DNA of 64,000 bases from an uncultured delta proteobacterium. Lineage in GTDB: Bacteria > Desulfobacterota > Binatia > Binatales > Binataceae. Positions 40,571 through 64,000 of the stretch are shown piece after piece (the first letter of the stretch is position 1; every line of letters begins with the position of its first letter). The translations under genes were made by a program, and so were the position numbers. The notes beneath the pieces are model-generated. The model saw nothing but the letters and a program-made list of their open reading frames with translations. It did no database searches and was not told where the DNA came from. The DNA lies in contig CAWJET010000001.1 of NCBI GenBank assembly GCA_963842085.1, positions 1,216,001 to 1,280,000 on the forward strand, in the 5' to 3' direction.

Positions 40571-41659
40571 ATGGCACGAGTGGGTAGCAGGGATCGCGGC
40601 CTTTTTGAGCGGCCGACGGGTTCCGGATCTTGGTGGATTAGGTATCACGATGTGAACGGAACAGAGCGGCGGGAGAAGGCCGGCCCGAAAGGACTTGCGC
40701 GCAAGCTTTACGAGAAGCGAAAGACTGAAATCCGTGAAGGCCGCTACTTTCCACCCGAACGCCGAAAACCGGTGATGTTTGCCGATATCCTCCAAAGCTA
40801 CCAGCGCGCCGCAGAAGCGGAAGGCCGGTCTGAGGGATGGGGTCCAGAACGTTACCGCCGCTTGCGCGAGAGGTTCGGCGGCCAACCTGCAGCCTCAATT
40901 ACTCCAGCAGCGGTCGAGGCTTTCCGTGATGAATTGTCGCGCGACCACGCGCCTGCAACCGTCAACCGCCACCTCCAACTCTTGCGCGCCATTTTTCTCC
41001 GAGCGCTCCGCGACGGCAAAGTCGAATCAGCTCCAACTGGCAAGGTCAGATTCTATCGCGAGAACAACAAGCGCGTGCGCTATCTGAGCGATGAGGAGGA
41101 ACTCCGGCTCTTCGATGCGTTGCCGAATTGGTTACGTCCCCTCGTTACCATCGCGCTCCACACGGGTATGCGCAGAGGAGAGCTGCTCAATCTCAATTGG
41201 GCCGACGTTGATTTCACCAGCGGAACTATCACGGTCCGCGAACCGAAGTCAGGAGAAAACGAGCACGTCGTGATGAACGATACCGCGAGCCAGACGCTTC
41301 GAGCTCTATGGGAGAAGCGATCAAAAGTCGTCGCGATCAAGCCTCGGGGACAAGACAATTCGGGCGGTTACGTTTTCACCGCACCTGAAGGCGGTTACAT
41401 TCACACTCTCAACCGATACTGGTACCCAGCGCTAGGACGCGCCCAGATCGAATCCTTCCGCTTCCACGACCTGCGACACACCTTCGCGTCGCGCGCTGCT
41501 ATGAGCGGCGTCGATCTGTATACTCTACAAGGTCTCATGAGGCACCGAAGTCCACAGATGACGCAACGCTATGCGCACCTAAGCGTGGCGCATCAGCGAG
41601 AGGCCGTTCGGACGCTTGACCGCTGGCAGCAGCGACAAAATGCGGCGTCGCAGAGTTGA
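40571..41659 (+). CDS. Tyrosine recombinase / phage-type integrase
   Basis: HTGMRRGELLNL, FRFHDLRHTFAS, MRHRSPQMTQRYAH. Confidence 0.95.
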   Translation: MARVGSRDRGLFERPTGSGSWWIRYHDVNGTERREKAGPKGLARKLYEKRKTEIREGRYFPPERRKPVMFADILQSYQRAAEAEGRSEGWGPERYRRLRERFGGQPAASITPAAVEAFRDELSRDHAPATVNRHLQLLRAIFLRALRDGKVESAPTGKVRFYRENNKRVRYLSDEEELRLFDALPNWLRPLVTIALHTGMRRGELLNLNWADVDFTSGTITVREPKSGENEHVVMNDTASQTLRALWEKRSKVVAIKPRGQDNSGGYVFTAPEGGYIHTLNRYWYPALGRAQIESFRFHDLRHTFASRAAMSGVDLYTLQGLMRHRSPQMTQRYAHLSVAHQREAVRTLDRWQQRQNAASQS

Positions 41660-47477: not shown

Positions 47478-48752
47478 CAGGCTGCGGAAAAAGTTCGATT
47501 AGTTAGGAATTTGTCCACTCGGGTTAGTTGTAAGTGTTGCTGAGCGAACATCTAAAGGGCTGCGGAGTAGAGGACCGACAGGTTCAGGTGTTTGCTTCAG
47601 GTGGCGATTGGCAAGAGGTTGCGCATCCTCACCAAGTTGTAGGCGGCGGCCGCGAAGGTAAACACCCAACCGACCCGGGCGGCACCCCGATGCCGGGTTT
47701 TGCGCAAGCCGCCGATGGTCTTGATCCAACCGAAGATCTCTTCCACCCGTTTGCGCTTGATCTGACTGATGGCGTAACCGGGATGGCGAGTGGTGCGGCG
47801 GTCGATGGCGCTGTGCATTTTGCGCGCGATGTGCGGAGTGACCTGATACGCGCGCAACTCGCGCACCAATTCCTTGCGGTCGTAACCCTTATCGGCGCCC
47901 AGTGTGACTCGATGCTGGCCCACGATCTGTGCCGCCATCGCGAGGGCCGCCTCGGGTTCGGCGCTGCCGCTGGCCTGAGTCAGCCGGGTGTTGACCACCA
48001 AGCCGTGGCGATTGTCCATCTGCACGTGGCCGGCGTAACAGAGCTTGGCCTCTTTGCCCGACCCTTTGCGGGCCAGCCGTGCCTGGGGATCGGTGGTCGA
48101 TTGGTGCGTGGCGTTGGTGCGGCGCTCACCATGGAAGTCCACGCTCGGGTTACCGGATCATCGGGCGGGATTTGCTCGTCCTCTCCTTCGCGCTTGAAAC
48201 TCTTGTGTCCGGCCCAGGCTTCGATCAGCGTGCCGTCCACCGTGAAATGCTCGTTGGAGAGCAGGTCTTGGGCACGCGCCTGCTCGAGCACCGCGTTGAA
48301 AAAGCCCTGCGCTACCTCGCCCACCAGCAAACGCTCGCGGTTCTTGGTGAAAACGGTCACGTCCCATACCGGGTCGTCGATGTTGAGCCCCACAAACCAA
48401 CGAAACAGGAAGTTGTAATCGAGCTGCTCCATCAAAAGTCGCTCGCTGCGCACCGTGTAGAGCACCTGCAAGAGCAGCGCGCGCAGCAGCTTTTCCGGCG
48501 CGATCGACGGCCGCCCGCTGTTCGTGTACACCGCGTCGAAGCGCCACGACGACTCCTTAAGCGCGGCGTCCACCATTACCCGGATCGCTCGCAACGGATG
48601 ATCCTTGGGTACTCGCCGCTCCGCCGATATGTAACTGAACATTCCGCTCTGCTGATGGTCCACCCCACGCATCACCGTCACCTCCTCTTACAACCTCTTC
48701 CTACTCCACTATATCCGATCGAGCGGAAAACTCCTCGTTTTTCCGCAGCCTG
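47478..48752 (-). mobile_element. IS5-family element with CTAG target duplication
   Basis: 15-bp perfect terminal IR CAGGCTGCGGAAAAA; CTAG at 47474-47477 and 48753-48756. Confidence 0.9.
47597..48672 (-). pseudogene. IS5-family transposase, frameshifted near 48150
   Basis: GRPSIAPEKLLRA, FTVDGTLIEAWA in one frame; STTDPQARL, TLGADKGYD, KRKRVEEIFGW in another. Confidence 0.88.
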
Positions 48753-48994
48753 CTAGTATCCTGTCCCGCAAATAACTTTATGTCGTCGGCGCCATTTGTC
48801 CGCGAAAGTGCGTCAGAAAATCATCGGTACAAGTAAACTTATTAATGGGACATGACACTAGGTCCGGGGATCGTCGCTTTAGATTCGCCTTTGGGGTTTC
48901 CGCCGACGAGATGGCGCATGGTCGCCGCGAGAGGCGTAGTCGCCCACGGATCGCTTCCAGCGATCACGGACATTGGCACTAACCTGCGGCCTAT

Positions 48995-49234
48995 ATGGCC
49001 GGCCTCGAGCGCGTACTGCGTGCGCTGGGGAATCGCGGCTACGGCGACGCGCACCTGGAGGCGGGAATTCTCGGCGGCCGGGCCTGTCTTGCGGCGTATT
49101 CGCTCGGCCGCGGTGGGACGGGACTCACGTTCTATGACGACGACACGACTAAATTCTTTGAAGCTCACGCTGCCGGCAAGAGCCCGCTGCTGATGGTGGC
49201 GGTGGGTGTCCCACGCTCGCGCACATTGTCATAA
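48995..49234 (+). pseudogene. C-terminal fragment of a SagB/nitroreductase-family protein
   Basis: GNRGYGDAHLEAGILGGRACLAAYSLG..TGLTFYDD. Confidence 0.6.
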
Positions 49235-49270
49235 GGCTCTCGTGCAGAATTAGATCGACCGCCTTTTCGG

Positions 49271-50383
49271 ATGGCGTGGCTTTTGCTTCCCTCACTCGGA
49301 AGTATGAGGGTTCCCGGTTTTAATCAGTTCGATCTCGACATCGCGCGCGCCCGTATCGTGCTCTCGATACTGGCGATGATTTCCTTGTATGTCGACCCGA
49401 GCGCCGCCGGCGGGTTATTTCATCTGACGCCGGTCGTCCTCGGTATATTGCTTTGTCACTTCGCCTACAGTTCCGGGGTCTATGCCGCGAGCCGAAAGGG
49501 GATGGGGGCGCGCTCGCTCCCGTTTATCACGATCGTACTGGATATCTTCTTTGCGAGCGCGATTGCGTTTCTGACCGAAGGACAGACCGGGCCGTCGTAC
49601 GTTTTTTTGGTGTTCGCGATTATCGCAGTGGGGATGCGCGCCGGGCTGGCGGTCACAATGCGCGTAACGCTGGGCGCTGTCGCGCTTTACCTCATCGTGG
49701 TTGCGATCTCCACGGGTCTCAGCGGCATCTACGTGATGCGCGCTGTTTACCTTGCGATCGCAGGTTATCTGATTGGATTCTTCGGCCAGCAGCGCGCGCA
49801 TTACGAGGAACGGCTGCGCGAGCTGGAGGCGCAGGCCGCGCGCCATTCGATCGCGCGCTCGCTCCACGACAGTTACGTGCAATCGCTGGCGGGCGTGGAC
49901 TTGCGGCTGCAGACCTGCCGCGAATTGATCCGGCGCGGGCGATCCGATGACGCGGCTAACGAGCTGCTCGGCCTTCAGACAGGCGTCGAACGCGAATACG
50001 CTGAAGTTCGTAAATATATTCGCACGTTGGCAGGAATAGAGGCGACGCCTACGCCGGCTGCGATCGAGGCAGCCGATCCGATGGTGACGTTAAAACTCGC
50101 GATTGACGCGCGCAGTCCGCTGGCTGAGCGGATCCTGAAGATCGCACTCGAGGGGTTGGCCAACGCACGAAAGCATTCGCACGCAACAGCGGTTGAAATA
50201 ACAGCAACGCAAAGTGCTGACGGGGTAGCGATCACGATCGGCGACGACGGAGTGGGATTTCCCAAGCCGGCCGATCCGCCGTGGACGATCGCTTCACATG
50301 TAGCCGAGTCCGGCGGTCGGCTTAACATCCGTGGCAACGGTTCGACCCGTCTCGAAATCGCAATTCCGAACGCCGGAAATTGA
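49271..50383 (+). CDS. Membrane-bound HisKA_3 sensor kinase
   Basis: Several TMs; IARSLHDSYVQ, EGLANARKHS, DDGVGF; G2 box degenerate. Confidence 0.85.
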   Translation: MAWLLLPSLGSMRVPGFNQFDLDIARARIVLSILAMISLYVDPSAAGGLFHLTPVVLGILLCHFAYSSGVYAASRKGMGARSLPFITIVLDIFFASAIAFLTEGQTGPSYVFLVFAIIAVGMRAGLAVTMRVTLGAVALYLIVVAISTGLSGIYVMRAVYLAIAGYLIGFFGQQRAHYEERLRELEAQAARHSIARSLHDSYVQSLAGVDLRLQTCRELIRRGRSDDAANELLGLQTGVEREYAEVRKYIRTLAGIEATPTPAAIEAADPMVTLKLAIDARSPLAERILKIALEGLANARKHSHATAVEITATQSADGVAITIGDDGVGFPKPADPPWTIASHVAESGGRLNIRGNGSTRLEIAIPNAGN

Positions 50384-51015
50384 GCATGTCAATTCGTCTG
50401 ATCCTCGCTGACGACCACGCGCTGTTCCGTCAAGGGCTATCGGCGCTGCTCAGGCTCGAGCCGGATTTCGAGGTCGTCGCCGAAGTGGAGCGTCTCTCCG
50501 ATCTGGATCTGGTGATGTCCGCGACTCCGTGCGACATGCTGCTGCTCGATTTGCAGATGGAACGATGGTCGATGGAAGAGATCCCGCGGCTTGCGAAGAT
50601 GGCGTCGGTTATCGTCCTGACCGCAACTGAGAGCCCTGAGAGCGGGATCACGGCGATTCGTCTTGGCGCGCGCGCGATCGTGCAAAAGCATTTTGCGATC
50701 GAATACCTGGTCACTGCGATCCGCGCGGTGGCTGAGGGCCACGTGTGGATGCCGCCGGCGATTCAGGCTGCAATTGTGCGGCAAGGGATTGTGAGTGGGA
50801 AGCGCCTGACGTCGCGCGAATCGGAGATCGTGCGCTTCGTGGCCATGGGGATGCGCAATTCTGAAGTGGCGCAGCGGCTCGAGGTCAGCGAAAACACCGT
50901 CAAGACGCATCTCTCGAATATCTTTGAGAAGCTCAAGATTCGCGATCGCCAGGAGCTCACGCACTACGCCATCAGAACGGGACTTATCACGGTTCAGAAT
51001 CCCGGCGGCGACTGA
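50380..51015 (+). CDS. NarL/LuxR-family response regulator
   Basis: LADDHALFRQG, LLDLQM, LTSRESEI, TVKTHLSNIFEKL. Confidence 0.92.
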   Translation: MSMSIRLILADDHALFRQGLSALLRLEPDFEVVAEVERLSDLDLVMSATPCDMLLLDLQMERWSMEEIPRLAKMASVIVLTATESPESGITAIRLGARAIVQKHFAIEYLVTAIRAVAEGHVWMPPAIQAAIVRQGIVSGKRLTSRESEIVRFVAMGMRNSEVAQRLEVSENTVKTHLSNIFEKLKIRDRQELTHYAIRTGLITVQNPGGD

Positions 51016-51234
51016 AAATCGTCTCTGCAACTCCGGGCCGTGACTACTTAGCGCCTTCGAAATAACAGGCACCTGCCCCTTCGCTAGGCAGTTCTACCTA
51101 AACGACTCGCAATTCAGCTGATCGTTTATTATCTCGCGATTTAGAATCGAGCTGACACTTTCGGGTGATCTTCGGATCATCCCCTATGAGTAGGCCATCT
51201 GCTCTCACAGTCTGACTTTTGCGATCTCAAAGTG

Positions 51235-51251
51235 GCGGCATGGCCGTTGCT
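51235..51251 (+). promoter_or_regulatory. Candidate sigma54 (-24/-12) promoter of the amt operon
   Basis: GCGGCATGGCCGTTGCT with GG-N10-GC spacing. Confidence 0.55.
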
Positions 51252-51333
51252 CTAGCGGCCCCTGTAGTCGCCGCTCTCTCGCTCAGAAAAGAAAACATGG
51301 CAGAACCAAAAGAACAGAGGAGAACTTTGCTCG

Positions 51334-51561
51334 ATGGGTGCGAATAGTCAACAAGGTTGGGCGCTTCTTTTGTTCCTCATCGGCTTCACATTCTTGCCGG
51401 CGGGTCTTTTCGCGCTGGGGCCAATCTTTGTGATCGCAGGCTTGGTATGCCTAATCGCATCGTTCGCCTGGTTTATGAGGATTAAGCCGCTCGAGCATCT
51501 GGAAAGCGGGAATAGTCCGGCGCAAGAGACTAATCCCGACCGAAAAGCCACTGCGGCCTAA
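51334..51561 (+). CDS. Small 2-TM membrane protein (75 aa)
   Basis: GAGGAG RBS; two hydrophobic helices. Confidence 0.7.
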   Translation: MGANSQQGWALLLFLIGFTFLPAGLFALGPIFVIAGLVCLIASFAWFMRIKPLEHLESGNSPAQETNPDRKATAA

Positions 51562-51589
51562 ATCTAGAGAAGACGATCGGAGGGAAACA

Positions 51590-51769
51590 ATGAGGATTCT
51601 AGGTCTGCTGGTATGCGTTCTAGGCTGGTTCATAGCCGTCTTGAGCGTGAAGGTTCCCGGAGTATACGCGCAGTTACTGGTCGCGGTCGTGGGATTCATC
51701 ATCGCTGCCTTGGGTTCAATGGCGATCGTCAACCGCTATCACCTGCAAAAGGCTAATTGGAAAGAATGA
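51590..51769 (+). CDS. Small 2-TM membrane protein (59 aa; not in the ORF track)
   Basis: GGAGG RBS; MRILGLLVCVLGWFIAVLSVKVPGVYAQLLVAVVGFIIAALGSMAIVNRYHLQKANWKE. Confidence 0.7.
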   Translation: MRILGLLVCVLGWFIAVLSVKVPGVYAQLLVAVVGFIIAALGSMAIVNRYHLQKANWKE

Positions 51770-51783
51770 GGGGAAAGCACTCG

Positions 51784-53496
51784 ATGCTCATAAGAATCAA
51801 TCGCTCACGCTATCGGCTCACCAGGCTTATCGTTCTGCTCTTGAGCGTTGCATGGCTTCTACCTACGACGCTCGTTCTGGCGCAAGCACCAGCCGCGTCG
51901 CCGTCGGCAGCCGCTTCGCCGGCTCCGCCGCCATCCGTGCCTCTCAGTACAGGCGACATCAGATCGATCAGCGGCCCTTCCGCCGCAGATTTGGCGAAGG
52001 GAGATCCGAGCGGAACTCTTACGGGTACGGTGAATGATGTCCCGGTCAGCGATACGAAGGCCGGTCTCACAATCGCCAACGTAGTTAACCAGGTGGGGCA
52101 GAATCGCATAGCGGCCAACTTCATTTGGACGCTGGTGACCGGTTATCTGGTCATGTTCATGCAGGCTGGCTTCGCCGCGGTTGAAACCGGACTCTGCCGC
52201 GCGAAAAACGCGAACCACACCTTCATGATGAACTTCATGGTGTACGGCTGGGGACTGTTCGCGTACTGGGTAATGGGATTCGCGCTGCAGCAGGGAGGAT
52301 GCGCTCCTGTCAGCACCTTAGGTGGCCTCAGCCCTCTCAACTCGGAATTCACGTTCAACTTTATAGGCGGCAAGCCCTGGGGACTCTTCGGCCAGAAGGG
52401 ATTCTTCCTGTCCGGTTCGGGCTACGACGTGGGCATCATGGTGATGTTCCTGTTCCAAATGGTGTTCATGGACACCGCTGCGACGATAGTCACCGGCGCC
52501 GCCGCCGAGCGATGGAAGTTTGCCGCCTTCTCAATGTCGAGCGTGTTTCTCGCCGCCATTACTTACCCGCTTTACGCGAACTGGGCATGGGGTGGTGGTT
52601 GGACGTCAGCGCTCGGGGCGAACTACGGGCTCGGACATGGATATTGCGATTTCGCCGGATCAGGTGTCGTGCATGCTGTGGGCGGGATTTCGGCCTTGGC
52701 TGTCTCGATGATCATCGGCCCGCGGATCGGCAAGTATCAGCGGAGTGGCAAGCCAAATCCGATGCCAGGGCACGATATGACCATGGTTCTGATCGGATGC
52801 TTCATCCTGGCGTTTGGATGGTTCGGGTTTAACCCAGGCAGCACTCTCGGTGCGTCAGCTAACGGCGATTTGCGGATAGGAACTATCGCGGTCAACACAA
52901 TGCTCGCAGGATGCACGGGTTCTATCGCGTCGCTGCTCTACATGTGGATTCGCTACGGTAAGCCTGATGCATCGATGGCAGGCAACGGACTGCTGGCGGG
53001 GCTTGTCGCGATTACCGCCCCCAGTGGTTTCGTGAACACAGTGGGAGCAACGATTATCGGCTTCTTTGCCGGAATGCTCGTTTGCTTGAGCGTAGAATTC
53101 ATCGAGCGCGTACTGAAGGTCGACGATCCAGTCGGTGCCATCTCAGTACATGGGACGTGCGGTCTCTGGGGTGTCATATCAGTAGGTTTGTTCGCAGATG
53201 GCACCAGCAATTACGGCGGCAGTTGGAACGGTGTCAATGGCAACGTGACTGGACTGTTCTATGGCGACCCGAGCCAGTTGGTCGCCCAGTTCATAGGGTG
53301 CGCGACCCTGATCGGGATCGTCTTTTCGCTCGCATATGTCCTCAACTGGTTCGTCGACCTCGTCGTCGGACAGAGGGTCGGAGCCCACAGCGAGCTTGAA
53401 GGTCTCGATCTGCCGGAGATGGGAGCGCTCGGTTATCCCGAGTTCCAGCTAGTTACATCAGGCCTTGGCCGTTCAATCGACGTGGCAGCCGACTAG
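51784..53496 (+). CDS. amtB: Ammonium transporter (Amt family) with long N-terminal extension
   Basis: MFMQAGF, GAAAER, DFAGSGVVH, IGPRIG, PGHD, GWFGFNPGS, AGLVAIT, VDDPVGAISVHG. Confidence 0.93.
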   Translation: MLIRINRSRYRLTRLIVLLLSVAWLLPTTLVLAQAPAASPSAAASPAPPPSVPLSTGDIRSISGPSAADLAKGDPSGTLTGTVNDVPVSDTKAGLTIANVVNQVGQNRIAANFIWTLVTGYLVMFMQAGFAAVETGLCRAKNANHTFMMNFMVYGWGLFAYWVMGFALQQGGCAPVSTLGGLSPLNSEFTFNFIGGKPWGLFGQKGFFLSGSGYDVGIMVMFLFQMVFMDTAATIVTGAAAERWKFAAFSMSSVFLAAITYPLYANWAWGGGWTSALGANYGLGHGYCDFAGSGVVHAVGGISALAVSMIIGPRIGKYQRSGKPNPMPGHDMTMVLIGCFILAFGWFGFNPGSTLGASANGDLRIGTIAVNTMLAGCTGSIASLLYMWIRYGKPDASMAGNGLLAGLVAITAPSGFVNTVGATIIGFFAGMLVCLSVEFIERVLKVDDPVGAISVHGTCGLWGVISVGLFADGTSNYGGSWNGVNGNVTGLFYGDPSQLVAQFIGCATLIGIVFSLAYVLNWFVDLVVGQRVGAHSELEGLDLPEMGALGYPEFQLVTSGLGRSIDVAAD

Positions 53497-53512
53497 GTCA
53501 AAAGGAGAACTT

Positions 53513-53605
53513 ATGGCAGCTCAAATTGCATTCGCGGTGATCATGCTCGCGGTATTCGTAGGATGGATGTTTATCAAACCCGGCAAGAGCATCTTCGATA
53601 AGTAG
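53513..53605 (+). CDS. 30-aa single-TM peptide (KdpF-sized; not in the ORF track)
   Basis: AAAGGAG RBS; MAAQIAFAVIMLAVFVGWMFIKPGKSIFDK. Confidence 0.7.
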   Translation: MAAQIAFAVIMLAVFVGWMFIKPGKSIFDK

Positions 53606-53614
53606 AAAACTCCG

Positions 53615-54111
53615 GTGGAATTGAATACGACAGCTATGCAGGAAGAGCTAACAGATCCGATGGCTGGAAAGCGCCCGACGCCCATAGTTCGCGACGCTCA
53701 CGCGTTGCTGCTGCGAGGGATTGACGCCTTGGAGCGCAATCATATCGAAGAGGCTATCGCCCTGCTGCGCCAGGCGGTCCAACTCGATGCCGAGTCTTTC
53801 CACAGCCAGCTCGCGCTCGGCATCGCGCTCACCAAGGGTCTCGAGATTCCAGCTGCCGAAGCCGCCCTGGAGGCGGCGATAAGTCTCGAACCTCGAAGCT
53901 TCTGGGCCCACTTTCGAATGGGCGAACTGTTCCAGCGCGTCGGGGTTCCAGGAAAAGCAAAAGAGGAATTCCAGACTGCGCTGGACCTGGCGCAGACCAG
54001 CGAGGAAAAGAAGATCGCCCGAGACCGCCTGGAAAGTGAACAGAAACGCGACCCAGTACGCGCGTGGCGGCCAGACTTCGCCGGCTTGTTGCGTAGAAAG
54101 AAGCGGAAGTG

Positions 54112-54112
<1 letters not shown>
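53615..54112 (+). CDS. TPR protein
   Basis: EEAIALLRQAVQLD, SQLALGIAL, EPRSFWAHFRMGELF. Confidence 0.8.
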
Positions 54113-54656
<544 letters not shown>

Positions 54657-54689
54657 GTCTCGGTTCGTCCATTTTGAGCCGGTCTGCCG

Positions 54690-55700
54690 ATGGTCTATGG
54701 CTTAGGAGTAACGCTAGTCGTCGTCTTGTTGGGCCCGGTGATGTTCGAGCCGATCGGACAGAACATCGAGATGTTCTTTCTAGTCGTCGGCGCCTTTGCT
54801 TCCGCTATCAGTGGGCAATGGGGACACGATCTGCTTCACGCAGCACTCACCGAACCGATCGCCTTGACGATCGCGGTTCTGGTCTTTGGCGTGGTCATGC
54901 GCGTGACGCGACCTTGGCTCGACCAGGGGGTGAAACGACTGGTGCAGGTCGTCGATCCGCGATGGATCTATTTCGCTTTGATCATAGTTTTGGGACTGCT
55001 TTCGAGCGTCATCACTGCGGTAATCGCGGCCCTGGTCTTGGTCGAAGCGATTGCTTTGCTGAAGCTTGATCGCCGCAGCGAGATAGCAGCCGTCGTGCTG
55101 GCTTGCTTTGCGATCGGCTTGGGCGCCGCACTTACCCCGGTCGGCGAACCTCTCGGCACGATAGCGATCGCGGCGCTGAAGACGGACTTCTGGTACCTCG
55201 CGCGACTTTTGGGGCCAATGGTCGTTACCGGCATCGCGATCGTTGGAATTTTCAGTCTGTTCCTGCCGGCGAAGTACGGACACTCACTGAAAGCTGACGC
55301 CCACACGGAGAATTGGTCCGAGATTTTCTTTCGCGCAGGGAAAGTTTATCTGTTTGTCGCGGGACTGGTTGGACTTTCGTGGGGACTGCGCCCGCTCGTC
55401 GACGCCTACATCAGCCACTTGCCGCAGGGTGTATTGTTTTGGCTGAACTCGATTTCAGCGGTCGTCGACAACGCCACGCTCACTGCCGCCGAGATTGGCC
55501 CCTCGCTGTCGACCGCGCAGCAGCGCGGTGTGCTGATGGGTCTCTTGATCAGCGGTGGCATGCTTATTCCTGGCAACATTCCCAACATCGTAGCAGCCGG
55601 GCGTTTGGGAATTTCGAGCCGCGAATGGGCTCGTGTTGGATTGGTAGCCGGGGTTCCACTAATGGCGCTCTGCTTCGCCGCTCTCTATTTGATGGCATGA
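54690..55700 (+). CDS. DUF1646 family putative ion transporter
   Basis: GAALTPVGEPLGTI, SAVVDNATL, GGMLIPGNIPNI. Confidence 0.82.
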   Translation: MVYGLGVTLVVVLLGPVMFEPIGQNIEMFFLVVGAFASAISGQWGHDLLHAALTEPIALTIAVLVFGVVMRVTRPWLDQGVKRLVQVVDPRWIYFALIIVLGLLSSVITAVIAALVLVEAIALLKLDRRSEIAAVVLACFAIGLGAALTPVGEPLGTIAIAALKTDFWYLARLLGPMVVTGIAIVGIFSLFLPAKYGHSLKADAHTENWSEIFFRAGKVYLFVAGLVGLSWGLRPLVDAYISHLPQGVLFWLNSISAVVDNATLTAAEIGPSLSTAQQRGVLMGLLISGGMLIPGNIPNIVAAGRLGISSREWARVGLVAGVPLMALCFAALYLMA

Positions 55701-56779
55701 GTCAAAGGCAACATCTTCACGATCCTAGAATATCCAGGCGGAGAATTTATCTCCGGGGCCTCGTCGGACCTCATGAAAGCGACGAGGGGGAGACTGCGAT
55801 TGAAACCCTGATGCCATCCCAGACCCGCCCGACGACAACTGGTGCGAAAGACGACGAGCTTCTCCTTGAGAGCCACAGCCTCCCAATGACTGAGTTTATC
55901 GAGGCAGGGCATCGAGCCGCCTTCGCCAACGCAACCGTTCTACTGACCGGCGACAGCGGCACCGGGAAAAGCGCCTTCGCGCGCCAGATACATAGATGGA
56001 GTCGGCGAAGCGAGGCGCCATTTTTAAGCGTCGACTGTGCAGCGATATCCGAGCACATTCGCGAGAGCGATCCCTTCGAGGATTTAAGGAACTCGCTGGC
56101 GGCTTTGCCCGCTGAACGCGACGGCGAAAGCGACGTTTCGGACTCCGCTACCCTGCTTTTGGACAATCTCGTGGATCTCCCGCATGCCGCTCAGGCCAGG
56201 CTTTTGCAGTTCGTCGAAGGGCGGCAATCTAGCCCGCATCTGCCCTCTTCGCGGTTGAGAGTAAGGATCGTTGCTGCTTCTAGTCGCGATCTTTCCGAAG
56301 AGGTTTCGGCCGGTCGTTTCCGCCGCGATCTCTTCTATCGGATCAACGTGATCGCGCTGAGGATTCCCGCGCTGGCCGATCGCCGCGGAGATATTCTTCC
56401 ATTAGCCGAGCACTTATTGGCGAACTTCGCACTGCAAAACCATCGGTTTGGATTGCACCTATCAGCCGAAGCTGAGGCCGCGATCGCGAGCTATCAGTGG
56501 CCTGGCAATGTCCGGGAATTGAGAAACGCCATCGAGCGCGCGGCCGTCCTATGCACCCGGGATTTGATCGGCGAACAACTTCTCCCACATGCGGTCTTGT
56601 CCGCCAAACGACTTTACTCCTTTCCGGAACCCAAACCAGTCAGTAGTCTCGAAGAGGTCGAGCGCCGGCAGATCATAGAAGTGCTCAAAGAATCCGCGAC
56701 CATGGAAGAGGCTGCGGCCGCACTCGGCATCAACTCCACGACACTCTGGCGAAAGCGAAAACTTTACAATATCCACTAG
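55697..56779 (+). CDS. Atypical NtrC-like AAA+/Fis-HTH regulator (no REC domain, no GAFTGA)
   Basis: ATGA overlap with DUF1646; GDSGTGKS, FRRDLFYRINV, WPGNVRELRNAIERA, LGINSTTLWRKRK; Walker B reads LLDNL. Confidence 0.82.
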   Translation: MSQRQHLHDPRISRRRIYLRGLVGPHESDEGETAIETLMPSQTRPTTTGAKDDELLLESHSLPMTEFIEAGHRAAFANATVLLTGDSGTGKSAFARQIHRWSRRSEAPFLSVDCAAISEHIRESDPFEDLRNSLAALPAERDGESDVSDSATLLLDNLVDLPHAAQARLLQFVEGRQSSPHLPSSRLRVRIVAASSRDLSEEVSAGRFRRDLFYRINVIALRIPALADRRGDILPLAEHLLANFALQNHRFGLHLSAEAEAAIASYQWPGNVRELRNAIERAAVLCTRDLIGEQLLPHAVLSAKRLYSFPEPKPVSSLEEVERRQIIEVLKESATMEEAAAALGINSTTLWRKRKLYNIH

Positions 56780-57013
56780 CGTGCGTGATGCATGATTCGG
56801 GTCGCATATCCTTGGGCAATCTGGCTTCTTCTGTTTTACGAGTGCAAACGACCGATTAGGGCTGAGAGCGGATTTGCCACTTCGATCGGTTGGATTTGGA
56901 TCCTTGAGTTTGCAGGATGGCAGGAGCGATAGGACCACTGCCATACATCTGATCGGAAGGGCGAAAGGCGCGGCTATGCGAAAACACCAGCAGTTCACTC
57001 TTGCCGGAGAAAG

Positions 57014-57448
57014 ATGATGAAGATGGAGCGGATTCTGGTGCCCGTCGACTTTTCTGAACATTCGCTCGCGGCACTAATGTACGCGATAGAACTAGCGCAC
57101 GAGTATGAATGCGAGGTGCTCCTCGTTCACGTCGTAGAGCCGCTACCTCGCGGGACCATGCGCTGGTCTGATGACACCAGTTTACTTGAGCAGCACCGTG
57201 AGAAGGCATGCGACGAACTCAAGCGTTTCGAGCAGGAAGCAACACGGCTCTATCCAAAATGCCGTTCGGAACTCTACTTTGGCATAACTCACGACGTGAT
57301 CGAGGAAGTGGTTAGCCGGTTGGAGGTTGATCTTGTAGTTATATCCATCCATGAAAAAACTCCACTGGTCGACCTATTGACCGGCGGCACCGCTCATCAT
57401 TTGCTGCGCCATGCCCGGTGCCCTGTCTTGAGGTTACTTGCTGACTGA
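57014..57448 (+). CDS. Universal stress protein (USP)
   Basis: ILVPVDFSEHS, LVHVVE, GGTAHHLLRHARCPVL. Confidence 0.88.
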   Translation: MMKMERILVPVDFSEHSLAALMYAIELAHEYECEVLLVHVVEPLPRGTMRWSDDTSLLEQHREKACDELKRFEQEATRLYPKCRSELYFGITHDVIEEVVSRLEVDLVVISIHEKTPLVDLLTGGTAHHLLRHARCPVLRLLAD

Positions 57449-57593
57449 CTACGATAAGTCTCCAGTTTTTGTATTCCACTGTTCCCTCGTGGCGATCCGC
57501 CAGACGAACGAGTGGTCCGAGCGGCATTGCTTTGCGCAACCTTTGCCAATCGCGTAGATTGCAAATTGCAAGACGAATGGTTTCCGCACTCGA

Positions 57594-59648
57594 ATGACAT
57601 CACCGACCACAGGTTCGAAGAATACCCGCTCGAACGGGAGCAAGCGTACCCTGAGTGACGTAATTATCGGTCCGGCGCGCGATGTCCGTGACCCCCAGAT
57701 CTTCCACAACCTTTCGCTGGTCGCATTTCTGGCATGGGTCGGGCTGGGCTCCGACGGTTTGAGCTCTTCCTGCTATGGCCCTGAAGAAGCTTTCCTGGCA
57801 CTCGGGCACCATCAGTATTTGGCCGTGTTCCTCGCGATGCTTATGGCGCTGACGGTTTTCATCATCTCGGCGTCTTATTCGCAAACGATCGATCTGTTTC
57901 CAACTGGCGGTGGCGGTTACCTGGTCGCGACCAAGCTCCTCGGCAAATATTCCGGCCTGGTCTCAGGATCGGCGCTGGTCGTCGACTACGTGCTGACTAT
58001 CGCGATTTCGATTGCGAGCGGCGCCGACGCAATTTTCAGCTTTCTGCCGGTCGCATGGCTGCCGTACAAATTCTGGGTCTGTCTTTTGGTCGTGGTGTTG
58101 ATGGTGGTGATGAACCTGCGCGGGGTGAAGGAATCGGTGCTGTCGCTGCTGCCGATCTTCCTTGCCTTTATCGTCATGCATGTGTGGCTGGTCGGCTACG
58201 CGATTCTCAGCCGCGCGCCGGAGCTGCCGTCAGTTGTCGGCCACGCCATGCGCGAGGTGCATGCCAGCACGCACAGCCTGGGGATGTTGGCGGTCGCGGT
58301 GATTTTTTTCCGCGCCTATAGCCTTGGCGGCGGCACCTACACCGGAATCGAGGCGGTCAGCAACGGCCTGCCGATTCTGCGCGAGCCACGCACCGAGACC
58401 GGCAAACGCACGATGATCTACATGGCGATCTCGCTGGCGTTCGTTGCCGGCGGAATTCTGCTCGGCTACCTGCTGCTCAACGTAGAGGCGGCCACCGGCA
58501 AGACCCTCAACGCCGTAATGTTCGATCGGCTTGCTTCCAACTGGCAGCTGTTCGGCTTCAGCGTTGGCCCCGGGATAGTCACATTCGCGCTCCTGACTGA
58601 AGGCGCGTTGCTGTTCGTGGCCGCGCAGACCGGATTCGTGGACGGGCCGCGCGTGCTGGCAACGATGGCGTCCGATCGATGGCTGCCGCGACGCTTCGCC
58701 AACCTGAGCGCGCGACTGGTGACGCAGGACGGCGTCGTCACGATGGGGCTGGGCGCGATACTGCTTCTTATCGGCACCGAGGCGAAGGTCGACGTGCTGG
58801 TCGTCCTGTACGCGATCAACGTATTCGTTACGTTCACGCTCTCGCAGCTCGGGATGACGACGCACTGGTGGCTGGAGCGCAAGAACGAAAAGCGCTGGCG
58901 CCGCAAGATGCTCATCAACGGGATCGGGACGCTCTTTACGGCCACCATCCTCATGATCACGCTGACGCTCAAGTTCTACGACGGCGGATGGGTTACCGTG
59001 GTTATCACCGGCGGCATGATTGCGCTCTGTTACGGGGTAAGGCGGCACTACGAACGCGTATCGAAGGCGATCGAGCAGCTCGAGGCCGATATTCTGCCCA
59101 AGCTGTACGCCGCGAAAAGGCACGAACCGGCCAAACGCGATCCCGAGGCGCCCACGGCCGCCATCCTGGTGAGCGGTTACAACGGTCTGGGCCTGGCGAC
59201 CCTGATCGCGGTAACGCAATTGTTCAAGGACGAATTCCACAACGTGGTTTTCATCGGAGTCGGCGAGGTCGACGCAGCCTTGTTGAAGGGTCACGAGGAA
59301 GTCCACGAGCTCGAGAACCGGATGAGCGAAGACCTCAATGAGTATTGCCAGTTCGCGACTGACCTGGGACTTCATCCGGAGTTGCGCGCGGGTCTTGCCC
59401 CCGACGTGGTCGTCGAGTTGCGCCGCTTGTGTCTGGAAGTCGCGCACGAATTTCCACACGCAGTGTTCTTCGCCGGCAAGCTCATCTTCTCGGACGAGAT
59501 GGAAGGGTTCATCGGCCGTTTCCTGCACAATCACACCTCGATGGAACTCCAGAACTGGCTCCAACTCTACGGATACAGTCTTGTGATTCTGCCGATCCGC
59601 GTGGGGATCGGCTCGATGGCGAGAGTGCCAATCTCAAGGGCAGCGTAA
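57594..59648 (+). CDS. APC-superfamily transporter, KimA-like K+ uptake protein
   Basis: SDGLSSSCYGPEE, GGGGY, VDYVLT, NLRGVKES, TGIEAVSNG, LYAINVF; C-terminal soluble domain. Confidence 0.82.
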   Translation: MTSPTTGSKNTRSNGSKRTLSDVIIGPARDVRDPQIFHNLSLVAFLAWVGLGSDGLSSSCYGPEEAFLALGHHQYLAVFLAMLMALTVFIISASYSQTIDLFPTGGGGYLVATKLLGKYSGLVSGSALVVDYVLTIAISIASGADAIFSFLPVAWLPYKFWVCLLVVVLMVVMNLRGVKESVLSLLPIFLAFIVMHVWLVGYAILSRAPELPSVVGHAMREVHASTHSLGMLAVAVIFFRAYSLGGGTYTGIEAVSNGLPILREPRTETGKRTMIYMAISLAFVAGGILLGYLLLNVEAATGKTLNAVMFDRLASNWQLFGFSVGPGIVTFALLTEGALLFVAAQTGFVDGPRVLATMASDRWLPRRFANLSARLVTQDGVVTMGLGAILLLIGTEAKVDVLVVLYAINVFVTFTLSQLGMTTHWWLERKNEKRWRRKMLINGIGTLFTATILMITLTLKFYDGGWVTVVITGGMIALCYGVRRHYERVSKAIEQLEADILPKLYAAKRHEPAKRDPEAPTAAILVSGYNGLGLATLIAVTQLFKDEFHNVVFIGVGEVDAALLKGHEEVHELENRMSEDLNEYCQFATDLGLHPELRAGLAPDVVVELRRLCLEVAHEFPHAVFFAGKLIFSDEMEGFIGRFLHNHTSMELQNWLQLYGYSLVILPIRVGIGSMARVPISRAA

Positions 59649-59899
59649 TTTCCCTCTGAGGCGTTCGACGTAGCCGTTCTGCTATGGCGAGCGGGAGGGT
59701 CGGACGATCGCGGACCCTGCGGTCTACCAAAAGCTCCGAAAGCGGCGAAAAGTCTAGAGTTTTGAGAATCACTGCCTTAGTGTCGGCGCCATGCATAAGC
59801 CCGAGCGATCAATCGTCTCTATGCTTGCCCGTCGATTCCGTAGTCGGGCGGTGGTCGAGCTATAGAATCTCGCGCTCCGCCCTCAACTGCACGTTCTTC

Positions 59900-60047
59900 G
59901 CCGCCAGCGGCCGGGTCGACCGCGGCTGCCTACTTTCGACAGCTTATCTCTGGGTCTTGCGCTACCGACTCTGGCCGCGCTGTTTGGACGCGATGGTGTT
60001 GGTCAAGCCGGCAACGGTAATCCAATGGCACCGGCAGGGATTCCGTG
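59900..60047 (+). pseudogene. Fragment of an integrase-core transposase related to 60930-61964
   Basis: LWPRCLDAMVLVKPATVIQWHRQGFRA vs LFPSVLDAIVIVKPETVLGWHRRGFRA. Confidence 0.65.
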
Positions 60048-60885
60048 CGGCGCTGGCCGACACGTTCGACAGATCGAGTTACGCCAACGGCACTGCGCGA
60101 TTGTTATCGAGCGCGAGCGGCGTCGCGGATTGGAGATCTGCGATCGGCGGAACGCATGGCCCGCCGCGCAGCATTCTGCTAACTCAAATCTCGATGAACC
60201 CCGCCACGCTGCCGAGCCTCACGCTTGTGCACAGCGAGGTTTCCACACCTATCGGGGTTTGAGGCGCAACGCAGATGATGAAGCACCTGCCTCTCTGTTA
60301 TCACGTTGCGTAGGCCGATGCGCCGCTGTAAAAAAAACCAATCGCTAGAACGAGGAAGGTGCCGACCAACAAGAGAGCTGCTTCGATAGCCATTGTTGGA
60401 ATCCTCCCTGTAGAGATTAAAGATTTTCTTACCGCTGAACAACGGATATTGCAATAAGGAACGGGCCAGCGACGGAGGGATCCATTGCCGACCCGAGCAC
60501 CGGTTGCCGTAAGTGTGGCGGCGAGCCTATTGTGCGTTCGTGGGGATAGTGGTGGGGAGTATCTTCCCGCCCAGCGCCAGCGTGGATTCTCCCCTCCATG
60601 CTAGCGCACTTCGTCGCATGATTCCTCATCCCATCTGATTTCGGCTTCGCTCCTGTTTATCCCAGCAAATGAAGCCACCCTCAAATCAAAAGACGCCAGT
60701 CAATGGCTGTCGCGCTGAGATGACGCCAGTACCGGCGTAGGGTCGGGACCTGATCGCCGAGAAGGTTGACGGCGCTGGCCGACACGTTCGCCAGATCGCA
60801 GTGTGCGGGCGCATTGCGAGATCGTCATCCAGCGCGAGCGGGGTAGCGGGCTTGAGATCTCATATCGGCGGAATGAATGAGCGCC

Positions 60886-61980
60886 TGTGCTTCGTCAAAA
60901 CGTCATCCGCGTGACGAAGCTCGGCGAGTGTGATAGTCGAACGCGCAATGTTTGGTTTGCTGACTCGGGTTTTGCGCACGCTGCTGTCGGTGCTTGCTGC
61001 TCGCGGCTCGCGTGAGGCCGAGATCCTCGTCCTGCGCCAGCAGCTATTGGTTCTGAGCCGCAAGGCGCCAAAGCGCGCCCGACTGCGAAACATCGATCGC
61101 CTGATTCTCGTCTGGCTGTCTCGGCTCTTCCCGTCGGTGTTGGATGCCATAGTCATCGTCAAGCCTGAGACTGTGCTGGGCTGGCATCGACGCGGGTTCC
61201 GCGCCTACTGGCGCTGGAAGTCCTGGCGGCGTGGCGGACGGCCCCGGATCGATCGCGAGCTCCGCGAGTTGATCCTCCGTATGAGCAGAGAAAATCCGCT
61301 CTGGGGCGCGCCCCGGATCCATGGCGAACTGCTGATGCTCGGGATCGACGTCAGCGAATCAACCGTTGGACGATACATGGTCAGGACGCGGCGACCGCGC
61401 TCGCAGGGTTGGAAGACCTTCCTGCGCAACCAGGCCGCCGGGATCGCCTCCATCGATCTATTCGTAGTCAGAACCATCTCGTTCAAGCTGCTCTACGGAC
61501 TAGTGATCCTCCACCACGCCCGAAGGCGGCTGGCGAGGATCGCCGTGACCACTAATCCGACCGCAGAATGGATCGCAGGCCAGGTGACCGAAGCCTTTCC
61601 CTGGAGCGAAGCGCCGCGTCATCTGATCCGTGACCGCGACCGTGCGTTCGGATCGGCGTACACCCGGCGGGTTCATGCGATGGGTATCCGCGATCATCCA
61701 ACTGCGGCACGCTCGCCCTGGCAGAACGGACACGTCGAGCGGCTCATTGGCTCGGTTCGGCGCGAATGCCTCGACCACGTCTTGGTGTTCGGCGAAGCGG
61801 ATCTGCGTCGCGTCCTCAAAACCTACGCCGGCTACTACAACAAGGTCCGAACCCACTTGTCGTTAGACAAAGACGCGCCCCACTGCCGACGCACACAGAC
61901 CGTCGGTGCCATCGTCGCAGTGCCGGTTCTCAAGGGACTCCATCATCAATACGTTCGAGTTTGAATTTTGATTATGGACA
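60886..61980 (+). mobile_element. IS481/IS3-like element with TGT...ACA ends
   Basis: Imperfect IR TGTGCTTCGTCAAAA / TGTCCATAATCAAAA. Confidence 0.65.
60930..61964 (+). CDS. Integrase-core (rve/DDE) transposase
   Basis: ENPLWGAPRIHGEL, SIDLF, LIRDRD, SPWQNGHVERLIGSVRRECLD. Confidence 0.9.
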   Translation: MIVERAMFGLLTRVLRTLLSVLAARGSREAEILVLRQQLLVLSRKAPKRARLRNIDRLILVWLSRLFPSVLDAIVIVKPETVLGWHRRGFRAYWRWKSWRRGGRPRIDRELRELILRMSRENPLWGAPRIHGELLMLGIDVSESTVGRYMVRTRRPRSQGWKTFLRNQAAGIASIDLFVVRTISFKLLYGLVILHHARRRLARIAVTTNPTAEWIAGQVTEAFPWSEAPRHLIRDRDRAFGSAYTRRVHAMGIRDHPTAARSPWQNGHVERLIGSVRRECLDHVLVFGEADLRRVLKTYAGYYNKVRTHLSLDKDAPHCRRTQTVGAIVAVPVLKGLHHQYVRV

Positions 61981-62219
61981 GGCCACCGAGACACATGATC
62001 ACGTAGAGCATGATCATCGCCCCGAGCGTGCTCTTGCCAGATTTTTTGGGCGCCGAAAAGATCAGTTCGGAATACAGCAGCCGGCCATCCGCGGTCAGCC
62101 TCAGCGCTTTCGACAGGAAACGTCGTTGCGCGCGGTTTAGTTCGAACGGCTGGTTGGTCTCAGGGTTGCGCAGAACTTAGCCAATGAACGCGATCGGATC
62201 GTGGCGCCAGCGCGCGATG

Positions 62220-62663
62220 TCATTCGGGCTTATCGCCACTGACGACCTCCTCGTCCTTCCCGGCCTGCACTATGGCAAGCGCGAGATCGAACTGCGCGCG
62301 CGTTCCCGACGCCCGGATCGCCATCCTCGATGCCGGTGTCAGGCCCAGTTCACGTTCGTAAGCGAGTTGCGCTTGGCGGAGCTGTCGCAATTCGGTGAGA
62401 AGGCGCCGTGGTTCGCCTTCAGAGTTCGTCACCCCGTTGACGACCAGTTCGGCAAATATGCTCGCACCAAGAATTTCAAACTCAGCCCACGCACGCGCGG
62501 CCGGAATGTCGCTCGGTTCGAGCCATGGCAGCACGCGTCGCATCTTCTCGACCAGCCGTCGCACGCGTCGATGGCGAAGTCTGAGACCGCTAGCCGCTTT
62601 CAAATACAGTCCGGTTCGCGCGCGTCGTACGCCCGAAGCCAGTCTTTCGTCTTGAGCATCCAT
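62220..62663 (-). CDS. P27-type terminase small subunit-like protein
   Basis: GAGG RBS; ELRQLRQAQLAYERELGLTPASRMAI. Confidence 0.55.
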   Translation of the reverse strand: MDAQDERLASGVRRARTGLYLKAASGLRLRHRRVRRLVEKMRRVLPWLEPSDIPAARAWAEFEILGASIFAELVVNGVTNSEGEPRRLLTELRQLRQAQLAYERELGLTPASRMAIRASGTRAQFDLALAIVQAGKDEEVVSGDKPE

Positions 62664-62740
62664 AGGAACCTCTACTCTTCAACTTAGGGGAAAATTTCCC
62701 TGATGCTCTTCGTGAGACAAATCGTGCGACACGCTAAAAT

Positions 62741-63598
62741 ATGAAACGTATGCGACCGATTCAGATCTGGCTTCCGACTCTTGGGCCGAGTCCGAATCTG
62801 AGCGAAGTGGCTCGCGACCGCGACCGCGCGTTCCGGGCTTGGGAAGGCGAGTCGAGCGTTTGGCTGATGCCCGACCTAAACAGGCAGACCCGCTGGGACA
62901 AGGACGGAATCCGAGACTTGGCCATCCCTGCCGAGCGTTTCGATCACTTGGAAGTGTTTCATGTCAGTGAAAAAGGCCAAGTCTCTGGGCCCTCGGTTAA
63001 CGACTATTTCCCGGGAGGGCGGCTAGATGGCTTGCTCCAGGCCTGGCTTAACGTGTGGAAGCTCGGCGGCGTCGCCCTCCATCCCGTGCCAAATCACTTC
63101 GAAATGGAAGTTCCGGAGATCACTTCCAATGGCGTTCGATATCGCAAGAGGAAGATCACTTTAGAGGGCGCACCCTCATTCCCCCTCCACCCTCCAGAAC
63201 CCAATTCGGAAACCTCGGAGCTTCGATGGCCTCCAAGAGGTTGCCCGCCTACGGTTTCTCCGGACGCTGAAATCATGACTCGCCGGTCGCATACCGGCAC
63301 CCACGCCGATGACAAACGCTTGACTCTAGAGTCCGGTGGCATGCTGATGCAATTTCTCCTTAACTGGCCCAAACCCCTCGATAACTTCCTGCCGATCTTG
63401 AGCGGTTTGGACGACCTGTCCTGCCAAGCCATCATGTCGGACATTGCACGAGATAGCCGGCGCGAACAGGAGAGATCGATCATCAAAGTCCGGGAGCTCT
63501 GCTTGCCGACGAGAATTGGCGGAAGGAACTGGCGCGCCCAGTTTCACGGGTATTTGACCGGCAAGGCCAGGCGCAATCGGTTGGACTCGTTTGGCTGA
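62741..63598 (+). CDS. Hypothetical protein
   Basis: 285-aa ORF divergent from the terS-like gene; no recognised motif. Confidence 0.5.
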   Translation: MKRMRPIQIWLPTLGPSPNLSEVARDRDRAFRAWEGESSVWLMPDLNRQTRWDKDGIRDLAIPAERFDHLEVFHVSEKGQVSGPSVNDYFPGGRLDGLLQAWLNVWKLGGVALHPVPNHFEMEVPEITSNGVRYRKRKITLEGAPSFPLHPPEPNSETSELRWPPRGCPPTVSPDAEIMTRRSHTGTHADDKRLTLESGGMLMQFLLNWPKPLDNFLPILSGLDDLSCQAIMSDIARDSRREQERSIIKVRELCLPTRIGGRNWRAQFHGYLTGKARRNRLDSFG

Positions 63599-63811
63599 TG
63601 GCAGTCTTGGTGGCAGTTGTGGTCGGAGAACCTGAAATTAGGAACTAGAAGCGATACCCTGTCGGTACCGAAAACCGGTCTTCTCTTTTAACCAGCCAAA
63701 CTCGCCGGCAAACTTTAGGTTGTTCGCGCGGTCTCGCCGCTGCCCGAAGTGAATGATGTTCCGCCTCTTGGCAATCGATGTTGTGACGGCGCGAGCCCGC
63801 CGCAACGCATT

Positions 63812-63854
63812 CTTACAAGCCGGGGGCGCAGGTTCGAAACCCTGCACCACCCAC
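63812..63854 (+). other. att-like 3' half of tRNA-Val(TAC), slightly degenerate
   Basis: CTTACAAGCCGGGGGCGCAGGTTCGAAACCCTGCACCACCCAC; starts at the anticodon loop, no D-arm upstream. Confidence 0.7.
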
Positions 63855-64000
63855 AGTAGAGTCAGGCGCTTACGAGATTCGGCTCGCTCCCCTCAGTCGT
63901 CTGGTGCTGGTTGGAAATGCGCGACTATCCCCAAAAACATCACAGCTACGGTTCGCGGTTTCGCCCGAATCTACCCTGCTCAAAATGAAGGCTTGCCGAG

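Follow-up and report, generated by a model that had tools for sequence, protein, structure and literature searches.

A 64,000-nucleotide stretch of DNA (hereafter the window) from an uncultured delta proteobacterium of the Binataceae (GenBank assembly GCA_963842085.1, contig CAWJET010000001.1, positions 1,216,001 to 1,280,000 of the forward strand) carries a gene for an ammonium transporter, Amt, embedded among four short open reading frames (ORFs), m1 to m4, and genes for a TPR protein, a PII protein (GlnK) and a DUF1646 transporter. We read this cluster, with a probability of about 0.6, as a sigma-54 nitrogen-type operon for a distinct Amt clade that has its own accessory proteins. The genes are real, conserved and co-inherited. 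Their cross-phylum core is m1-m2-Amt-TPR, usually together with PII, and this core occurs in metagenome-assembled genomes (MAGs) of Binatia, Acidobacteriota, Elusimicrobia and Omnitrophota. The proteins m1 and m2, encoded 5' of amt, and m3, encoded 3' of it in Binatia and some other phyla, would most likely be peripheral subunits of the Amt trimer, and the TPR protein would most likely be an adaptor on the cytoplasmic side. The unit would further include GlnK and a putative Na+(K+)/H+ antiporter, in this window the DUF1646 protein. We infer these roles for m1, m3, m4 and the TPR protein, and likewise the coupling to an antiporter.

The amt cassette and its small ORFs

The cassette is arranged in the window as follows.

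51334-51561, + strand: m1, 75 aa, two predicted transmembrane (TM) helices (ORF, tblastn conservation)
51590-51769, + strand: m2, 59 aa, two TM helices (ORF, tblastn conservation)
51766 or 51784 to 53496, + strand: Amt (PF00909, TIGR00836)
53513-53605, + strand: m3, 30 aa, a single TM helix (ORF; AAGGAG 6 nt upstream)
53615-54112, + strand: TPR protein, 165 aa from a GTG start (TPR Pfam families)
54112-54285, + strand: m4, 57 aa, two hydrophobic stretches (ORF; start overlaps the TPR stop)
54318-54656, + strand: PII/GlnK, 112 aa (PF00543)
54690-55700, + strand: DUF1646 membrane transporter (PF07854)

An Amt start at 51766 would overlap the m2 stop, and 51784 is the alternative. Intergenic gaps are -4 to 33 nt up to the DUF1646 gene and about 110, 234 and 145 nt after it. 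An earlier note on this DNA had described a run of co-oriented ORFs here. All twelve were found in place on the + strand, the family assignments of the note were confirmed by Pfam and NCBIfam, and by hydropathy m1, m2 and m4 fit two-TM hairpins and m3 a single TM helix. The note had also remarked that three of the mini ORFs were absent from its ORF track. These are m2, m3 and m4, which are missing because each is shorter than 60 aa, the default cut-off of the ORF list.

Related loci were taken from a species-level genome collection with the Amt protein as sole query, and the best 80 of 171 were used with 10-kb flanks. All 80 come from MAGs. Labels of the nearest ones, with Amt identities of 76-89%, read Candidatus Binatus, Binataceae or 'delta proteobacterium', and the others belong to Acidobacteriota (Terriglobia, Vicinamibacteria, Bryobacterales), Elusimicrobia, Omnitrophota and Eisenbacteria, with one labelled Chlamydiae. 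Loci were counted gene by gene by tblastn with the window proteins, with 20 shuffles per query as the control. The earlier note had proposed a check on the conservation of the mini ORFs, and conserved they are: m1 was matched in 68 of the 80 loci and m2 in 77 (0 loci in each shuffle), m3 in 41 (at most 1 locus) and m4 in 25 (at most 3 loci). The TPR gene was matched in 79 loci, just 3' of amt (shuffles 0), and a PII gene lies near amt and on its strand in 60. All mini-ORF and TPR matches are on the amt strand in unchanged order, with m1 always 5' of m2. When the count was restricted to the 71 loci with at least 700 nt of upstream sequence, m1 was present in 65 and m2 in 70. Of 11 other Binatia loci without a tblastn match to m4, 10 proved on inspection by eye to have an m4-like ORF that overlaps the TPR stop.

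The mini ORFs are intact. Across loci m1 measures 56-87 aa, m2 59-61 aa with a few copies of 64 aa, m3 28-31 aa apart from one locus at 36 aa, and m4 48-70 aa, and they are separated from the adjoining genes by short gaps or overlap them. Median pairwise ratios of nonsynonymous to synonymous substitution (dN/dS), which are rough because many pairs are near saturation, are 0.38 for m1, 0.34 for m2, 0.21 for m3, 0.34 for m4 and 0.56 for the TPR gene. Differences between loci in the mini ORFs show an excess at third positions in the + frame. The mini ORFs are under purifying selection. The loci also hold 9 additional Amt paralogs, and because no second copy of any mini ORF was found in the 80 loci, these paralogs have no m1 or m2 of their own. 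It is close to certain that the mini ORFs are real genes that belong with this Amt clade.

Some loci depart from the common arrangement. In L060 (14405-16234) a second, canonical amt-glnK pair directly follows the cassette, and in L063 (4507-5791) the TPR gene stands between two PII genes. Apparent frameshifts or truncations of amt were seen in several loci. In L011 (near 9815-10279) the m2 reading frame continues into the Amt N-terminus, in L032 a stretch inside the Amt gene is scrambled (alignment columns about 358-395 of A4), and in L020, L024, L061 and L070 the Amt matches are split or short. These broken genes may be MAG assembly errors or pseudogenes.

Each mini protein has features of its own. 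m1 has a conserved N-terminus, a GFT motif and a variable tail, m2 has a C-terminal AIWK motif, m3 ends in KPGKSIFDK, and m4 has a conserved AP-x-x-P turn as well as its two hydrophobic stretches. m3 is carried by MAGs of Binatia, Elusimicrobia, Omnitrophota and Eisenbacteria, and in most loci it starts 3-33 nt past the amt stop. It is absent from the Acidobacteriota loci, where the TPR gene directly follows amt and the gap is too short for m3. The m1, m2 and m3 families are widespread as stand-alone, mostly unnamed proteins. The m2 profile has 2758 database relatives (cluster representatives at 90% identity), all unnamed, without a Pfam family, and labelled 'hypothetical' or 'uncharacterized membrane protein'. 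The m1 profile has at least 785 (likewise at 90% identity), unnamed or auto-named, some after NfeD, and the m3 profile has 53 representatives (50% identity) among 1.84 billion proteins, nearly all 27-33 aa long.

No Pfam or NCBIfam family was found for m2, m3 or m4 (E up to 0.01 for m3). m1 scored 24.5 bits against NfeD_membrane (PF24961, cut-off 26) over profile positions 48-89 of 119, and some m1 relatives carry a precomputed NfeD domain plus a JGI auto-name. This likeness may be a generic TM similarity. In a profile search of the PDB the best match to m2 was ND4L at E 0.069 and m1 had none, and in the ESM Atlas both matched only unnamed clusters at 0.92-0.96, named clusters at 0.84 or below being leads only. 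A common origin of m1 and m2 as paralogs was considered and rejected (hhalign probability 2%).

Amt, the predicted m2 site and the TPR protein

The window Amt matches PF00909 with 343 bits (cut-off 23.2, E 2e-102, profile positions 2-399 of 399) and TIGR00836 with 356.9 bits (cut-off 343.3). It falls below the E. coli-type AmtB equivalog NF007947 (136.7 bits vs a cut-off of 657) and the marine subtype TIGR03644 (309.6 bits vs 514). Judged by these profile scores, it is a member of a clade separate from both. Its best PDB matches are 6eu6, 8qj3/8qpf and 2b2f, with AmtB at E about 1e-33. Among 40 clade members the mean column identity is 66%, and D295-F296-A297-G298, H303, W352-F353-G354-F355-N356 and H462 are invariant or nearly so. 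We take these motifs, DFAG, the twin His and WFGFN, to serve pore functions. The earlier note had picked out the same motifs and a long N-terminal extension, and both observations hold. The extension, about 115 aa before TM1, is made up of a signal peptide, a linker rich in Pro and Ala, and a periplasmic segment that is conserved.

A complex of Amt residues 60-576 with m1 and m2 was predicted from alignments of 33 rows each in matched order, with m2 as the scored partner. The interface score ipSAE for m2 and Amt was 0.85 (0.86, 0.85 and 0.84 in the three runs), and the best of three controls, two with unrelated partners and one with Amt replaced, was 0.00. At least 98% of contacts recur between runs, partner pLDDT is 86 or higher, and about 100 contacts are confident. 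All confident m2 contacts are with Amt, at residues 502-525 in the last helix and 308-328 at the end of TM5 and in the next loop. Further Amt residues in contact with m2 are 283-289, 450-452 and 200-201. The contacts include the invariant m2 residues G12, G35, G42, N48, A55 and W57, and conservation of the m2 interface is slightly raised (0.63 vs 0.50). Since neither m2 nor m1 has a relative in the PDB, the model did not draw this result from a known complex structure with a partner of this kind. The model thus points to m2 as a bound Amt subunit, which we consider fairly probable, and m2 would pack on the last, lipid-facing Amt helix and on the end of TM5.

Several points weigh against this reading of the cassette. 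The binding of m2 to Amt rests on the confidence of a model. Of 157 solved complexes 116 attain the ipSAE mark, as do 2 of 215 mismatched pairs; these counts are only a rough guide here because of our own alignments and the three chains. Conservation is no higher at the Amt interface residues than elsewhere in the protein (0.76 vs 0.86), and no natural fusion of m2 with Amt was seen among the longer m2 relatives listed (6 proteins, 113-183 aa). Amt was modelled as a monomer, and the compatibility of the m2 site with a trimer would depend on the last helix facing the lipid there, as it does in AmtB structures. No passage on the position of this helix was found in the available text of the papers on Ks-Amt5 and Sd-Amt1. 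The sample consists of MAGs only, with the genes read from sequence alone, and 14 of the 73 loci evaluable for the transporter gene described below have other neighbours and no antiporter-like gene.

The mini proteins might instead be co-transcribed with amt without being stable subunits. They could serve as transient insertion or assembly helpers for an Amt with a long periplasmic N-terminus, or as independent small membrane proteins of nitrogen stress. Co-inheritance is by itself no proof of binding, and 7 of 44 blindly picked neighbour pairs pass the same complex test; the lack of extra conservation at the Amt interface and the lack of fusions also fit this explanation. However, the distance between 0.85 and 0.00 in the controls and the recurrence of about 100 confident contacts in three runs argue for a stable interface. 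The fixed length and invariant glycines of m2 are as expected for helix packing, and the linkage to the Amt clade is kept across at least four phylum-level groups. We therefore regard helpers or independent proteins as an unlikely explanation and retain the reading of m1, m2 and m3 as Amt subunits.

The TPR protein has no signal peptide and no hydrophobic segment by hydropathy, and an RPDF-type motif lies near its C-terminus. What follows this motif differs between lineages. In Acidobacteriota it is a hydrophobic C-terminal TM helix, in Elusimicrobia and Omnitrophota an amphipathic basic tail, and in Binatia a stop codon that is overlapped by the start of m4. Tail-anchored forms in the other lineages suggest m4 as an anchor. 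By this analogy, the TPR protein would always be held at the cytoplasmic face of the membrane, tethered by its own helix, by the amphipathic tail or, in Binatia, by the translationally coupled m4 as a separate anchor. With two hydrophobic stretches in m4 and one in the Acidobacteriota tail, this is an analogy and not a demonstrated gene split. The PII protein matches PF00543 with 115.9 bits (cut-off 25, E 1e-33) and falls below the NCBIfam equivalog cut-offs (164 bits vs 202). Its T-loop Tyr51 is present in the translation.

The earlier note had proposed an undescribed multi-subunit Amt complex. Conservation of the mini ORFs and the predicted docking of m2 support this proposal. A full assembly that also takes in the TPR protein, GlnK and the antiporter is doubtful. 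In its strongest form, the whole Amt clade of soil Acidobacteriota and Binatia would work only as a hetero-oligomer. The trimer would carry obligatory m1 and m2, and m3 where present, and the tethered TPR protein would be a scaffold linking GlnK and the Na+(K+)/H+ antiporter to it in an ammonium-proton transport assembly for NH4+ capture, for example at low external pH, with compensation of charge and pH. We consider this form improbable.

Cation transporters, regulation and neighbouring genes

In 59 of the 73 evaluable loci, amt is followed within 2.6 kb by a gene for a secondary ion transporter on its own strand. The slot is filled by DUF1646 in 31 loci (Binataceae type), by Na_H_Exchanger (PF00999) in 24 (mainly Terriglobia, with the order amt-TPR-exchanger-PII) and by a CitMHS-like gene in 4 (Vicinamibacteria type). 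The window protein matches PF07854 with 326.4 bits (cut-off 21.4, E 3.5e-97, positions 2-346 of 347), and it is a putative Na+/H+ antiporter of the ion-transporter superfamily. The available text of one study describes DUF1646 as a family of unknown function whose genes are targets of Na+ riboswitches, with some members predicted to be Na+/H+ antiporters (PMC9337991). The presence of different transporter families in one slot suggests a functional coupling of this Amt clade with monovalent cation/proton exchange. Candidate purposes are compensation of charge or pH during electrogenic NH4+ uptake, which the antiporter would probably provide, or a vent for NH4+ and K+ as in AmhT. Three distant Binatia loci (L049, L050, L056) are arranged differently: m1/m2-amt-m3-TPR-m4 is followed by an NtrB/NtrC-like pair, namely a GAF histidine kinase and a receiver-sigma-54-activator with GAFSGA, and no antiporter gene is present. 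PII is encoded upstream in L050 and L056, and L049 begins at m2.

The genes and the promoter-like site on either side of the cassette are listed below.

49271-50383, + strand: HisKA_3 membrane kinase (Pfam, NCBIfam)
50380-51015, + strand: NarL/LuxR-type response regulator (Pfam, NCBIfam), followed by a 319-nt gap
51237-51251, + strand: sigma-54-type -24/-12 promoter-like site (pattern match)
about 55811-56779, + strand: AAA+ regulator (PF00158, AAA_lid_14, HTH_8)
57014-57448, + strand: universal stress protein, USP (PF00582)
57594-59648, + strand: KimA-type APC permease (match to 6s3k)

The promoter-like site is the only match to GGCAYGNNNNTTGCW in the window (chance expectation 0.11) and lies 83 nt 5' of the m1 start codon. 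A similar site occurs within 300 nt 5' of m1/m2 in 36 of 73 loci, nearly all of them Binataceae, compared with 20 of 790 random 300-nt windows. A scan of 50900-60400 for sigma-70 promoters and terminators gave counts within the shuffled expectation, and an Rfam scan of 48000-64000 gave no match. A sigma-54 promoter needs an AAA+ enhancer-binding protein, not a NarL/LuxR-type response regulator. The upstream kinase and regulator are found on the same strand in 20 and 21 of the 80 loci, all Binatia-type. The induction of the cluster by this two-component system, as suggested in the earlier note, is therefore not borne out.

The AAA+ regulator matches PF00158 at E 2e-36 and has an HTH_8 domain and no N-terminal sensor or receiver domain. 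Its start is uncertain, the frame being open from 55313. Relatives occur on the same strand in 12 of the 80 loci, and in nine (L001-L004, L011, L018, L034, L037, L061) an ortholog stands 3' of DUF1646. A GAFTGA-like motif is absent from the window protein and from 9 orthologs. The GAFTGA loop contacts sigma-54, and a protein with neither this loop nor a receiver domain is unlikely to activate the sigma-54-type promoter. It may be a sigma-54-independent regulator and is a lineage-specific add-on.

Fifteen loci have a gene for a BBP2 (OmpL-like) beta-barrel porin just 5' of m1-m2-amt. In L024 and L032 this gene is on the strand opposite to amt, and in the remaining 13 (L012, L042, L045-L047, L054, L058, L060, L062, L067, L070, L071 and L073) it shares the amt strand. 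In L012 a glutamine synthetase gene stands between the porin gene and m1. Because the porin gene, and sometimes glutamine synthetase, precedes m1 in many Acidobacteriota loci, the promoter of these loci may sit further upstream. Ammonium may pass the outer membrane through this porin.

The earlier note had offered a second proposal, an NH4+/K+ homeostasis module induced by the upstream two-component system. Its K+ side was built on DUF1646, the KimA-type permease and a likeness to KdpF, and Amt would be coupled to K+ uptake. The APC permease is by sequence a putative KimA-type K+/H+ symporter. It aligns with Bacillus subtilis KimA (6s3k) at E 2e-55 over residues 44-494, and the three motifs reported in the note (SDxLSSxxYG, VDYxLT, TGxEAxSN) are present and aligned. 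A cation transporter gene is conserved beside amt-TPR, and the upstream kinase-regulator pair would also fit. However, KimA orthologs (59-68% identity) occur in only 5 of the 80 loci, at a variable distance of 2.3-6.1 kb past amt, and the conserved transporters are antiporter-like and not K+ uptake systems, so that the linkage of amt to K+ transport genes gives way to one with antiporter-like genes. Close orthologs of the USP (73-76% identity) are found in L001, L003 and L011 on the opposite strand, and its orientation is thus not conserved. The likening of m3 to KdpF also fails, as m3 has no KdpF match in Pfam or NCBIfam and no kdp genes were found in the window region or in the annotated loci (14 loci were annotated with Pfam, and neighbour families were followed across all 80 by tblastn). 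The promoter-like site is of the sigma-54 type, and the kinase-regulator pair is missing from 59-60 of the 80 loci. We consider a K+ module quite improbable. KimA, USP and the AAA+ regulator were rejected as core members on their counts (5, 3 on the opposite strand, and 12 of 80 loci). In the operon that we favour, the GAFTGA-less regulator, the USP and the KimA-type permease would be lineage-specific neighbours outside the core.

That this Amt is an ammonium sensor, not a transporter, with output passed non-covalently to the tethered TPR protein and PII, is very improbable: its best PDB matches include 8qj3/8qpf and 6eu6, the latter cited in a paper on the sensor kinase Ks-Amt5 of which part of the text was available (PMC5764959), and a plain transporter would not usually have a conserved cytoplasmic partner of its own, but the pore and recruitment motifs checked are all invariant, no signalling domain is fused to Amt, and GlnK in the cassette and, in some loci, glutamine synthetase and porin genes are as expected for uptake genes.

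Genes of mobile elements were also observed on both sides of the amt cluster.

20529-23159: further transposase genes
35160-36953, upstream of the amt cluster: type IV secretion system (T4SS) coupling protein
36957-39689, upstream: TrwC relaxase
40571-41659, upstream: phage-type integrase
42024-43730 and 44591-46276, minus strand, upstream: two large serine recombinases
60930-61964, downstream: IS481/IS3-like transposase

The block from the kinase to KimA may lie beside or within an integrative conjugative element. Two other ORFs, at 59684-60262 (192 aa) and 62741-63598 (285 aa), have no Pfam or NCBIfam family.

Comparison with known ammonium transport systems

In the usual view, Amt is a homotrimer that works by itself and has GlnK, a PII protein, as its sole partner. 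If our reading is true, ammonium uptake would have a new layer, made up of conserved small membrane proteins dedicated to this Amt and a TPR adaptor tethered to the membrane, three mostly unnamed small-protein families would gain a function, and DUF1646 and a set of Na_H_Exchanger genes would gain a nitrogen-uptake context. The lineages concerned, Acidobacteriota and Binatia, figure prominently in the soil and sediment MAGs of this sample. No description of the m1-m2-Amt-TPR cassette was found in the literature searched, which covered few subscription papers, so that this absence is no proof.

KdpF of KdpFABC, AcrZ of AcrAB-TolC and CydX of cytochrome bd are proteins of 30-60 aa with one or two helices, encoded in or next to the operon, that bind a large membrane protein on its lipid-facing surface, with a stabilising or tuning effect. 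They are the nearest mechanistic analogues of the mini proteins. Unlike them, m2, m3 and m4 have no Pfam or NCBIfam hit, and the partner here would be an Amt; no such subunit of an Amt is described in the literature searched. Why a Na_H_Exchanger or DUF1646 gene travels with amt might be explained on the model of AmhT of Bacillus pseudofirmus, a CPA-type K+(NH4+)/H+ antiporter with a part in ammonium homeostasis. AmhT is not known to be encoded with an Amt, and nothing relevant on it was found in the literature searched.

Ks-Amt5 and Sd-Amt1 are among the solved structures closest to the window Amt by sequence. As far as the available text of the two papers goes, an Amt module is coupled in both to a cytoplasmic partner module (PMC5764959, PMC11152129). 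The partner there, a histidine kinase or HAMP plus a diguanylate cyclase, is fused to the Amt, whereas the window Amt has no fused module and its candidate partners have genes of their own. The only precedent found in the literature searched for a small protein working with an Amt is sP36 of Methanosarcina mazei, a soluble 61-aa protein that, according to the abstract, binds AmtB1 and GlnK1 and moves to the membrane on nitrogen upshift (PMC10714827). In contrast to this soluble archaeal protein, which the abstract does not place beside a transporter gene, m1 to m4 are hydrophobic integral membrane proteins encoded in a bacterial amt operon. In the available text of a 2023 review of transporter regulators, PII proteins are the sole regulators given for Amt (PMC10710835).

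With the glnK-amtB system (E. coli AmtB-GlnK) the window unit shares the Amt pore motifs, a PII gene in the operon whose product has the T-loop Tyr51, and a putative sigma-54-type promoter. Promoters of this type are usual for nitrogen-regulated glnK-amtB. The window unit differs in the four extra genes between and around amt and glnK (m1, m2, m3 and TPR-m4), in the long conserved periplasmic N-terminal segment and two insertions of its Amt, and in the antiporter-like gene that is part of the unit. We regard it as an elaborated form of glnK-amtB whose predicted accessory subunits are undescribed.

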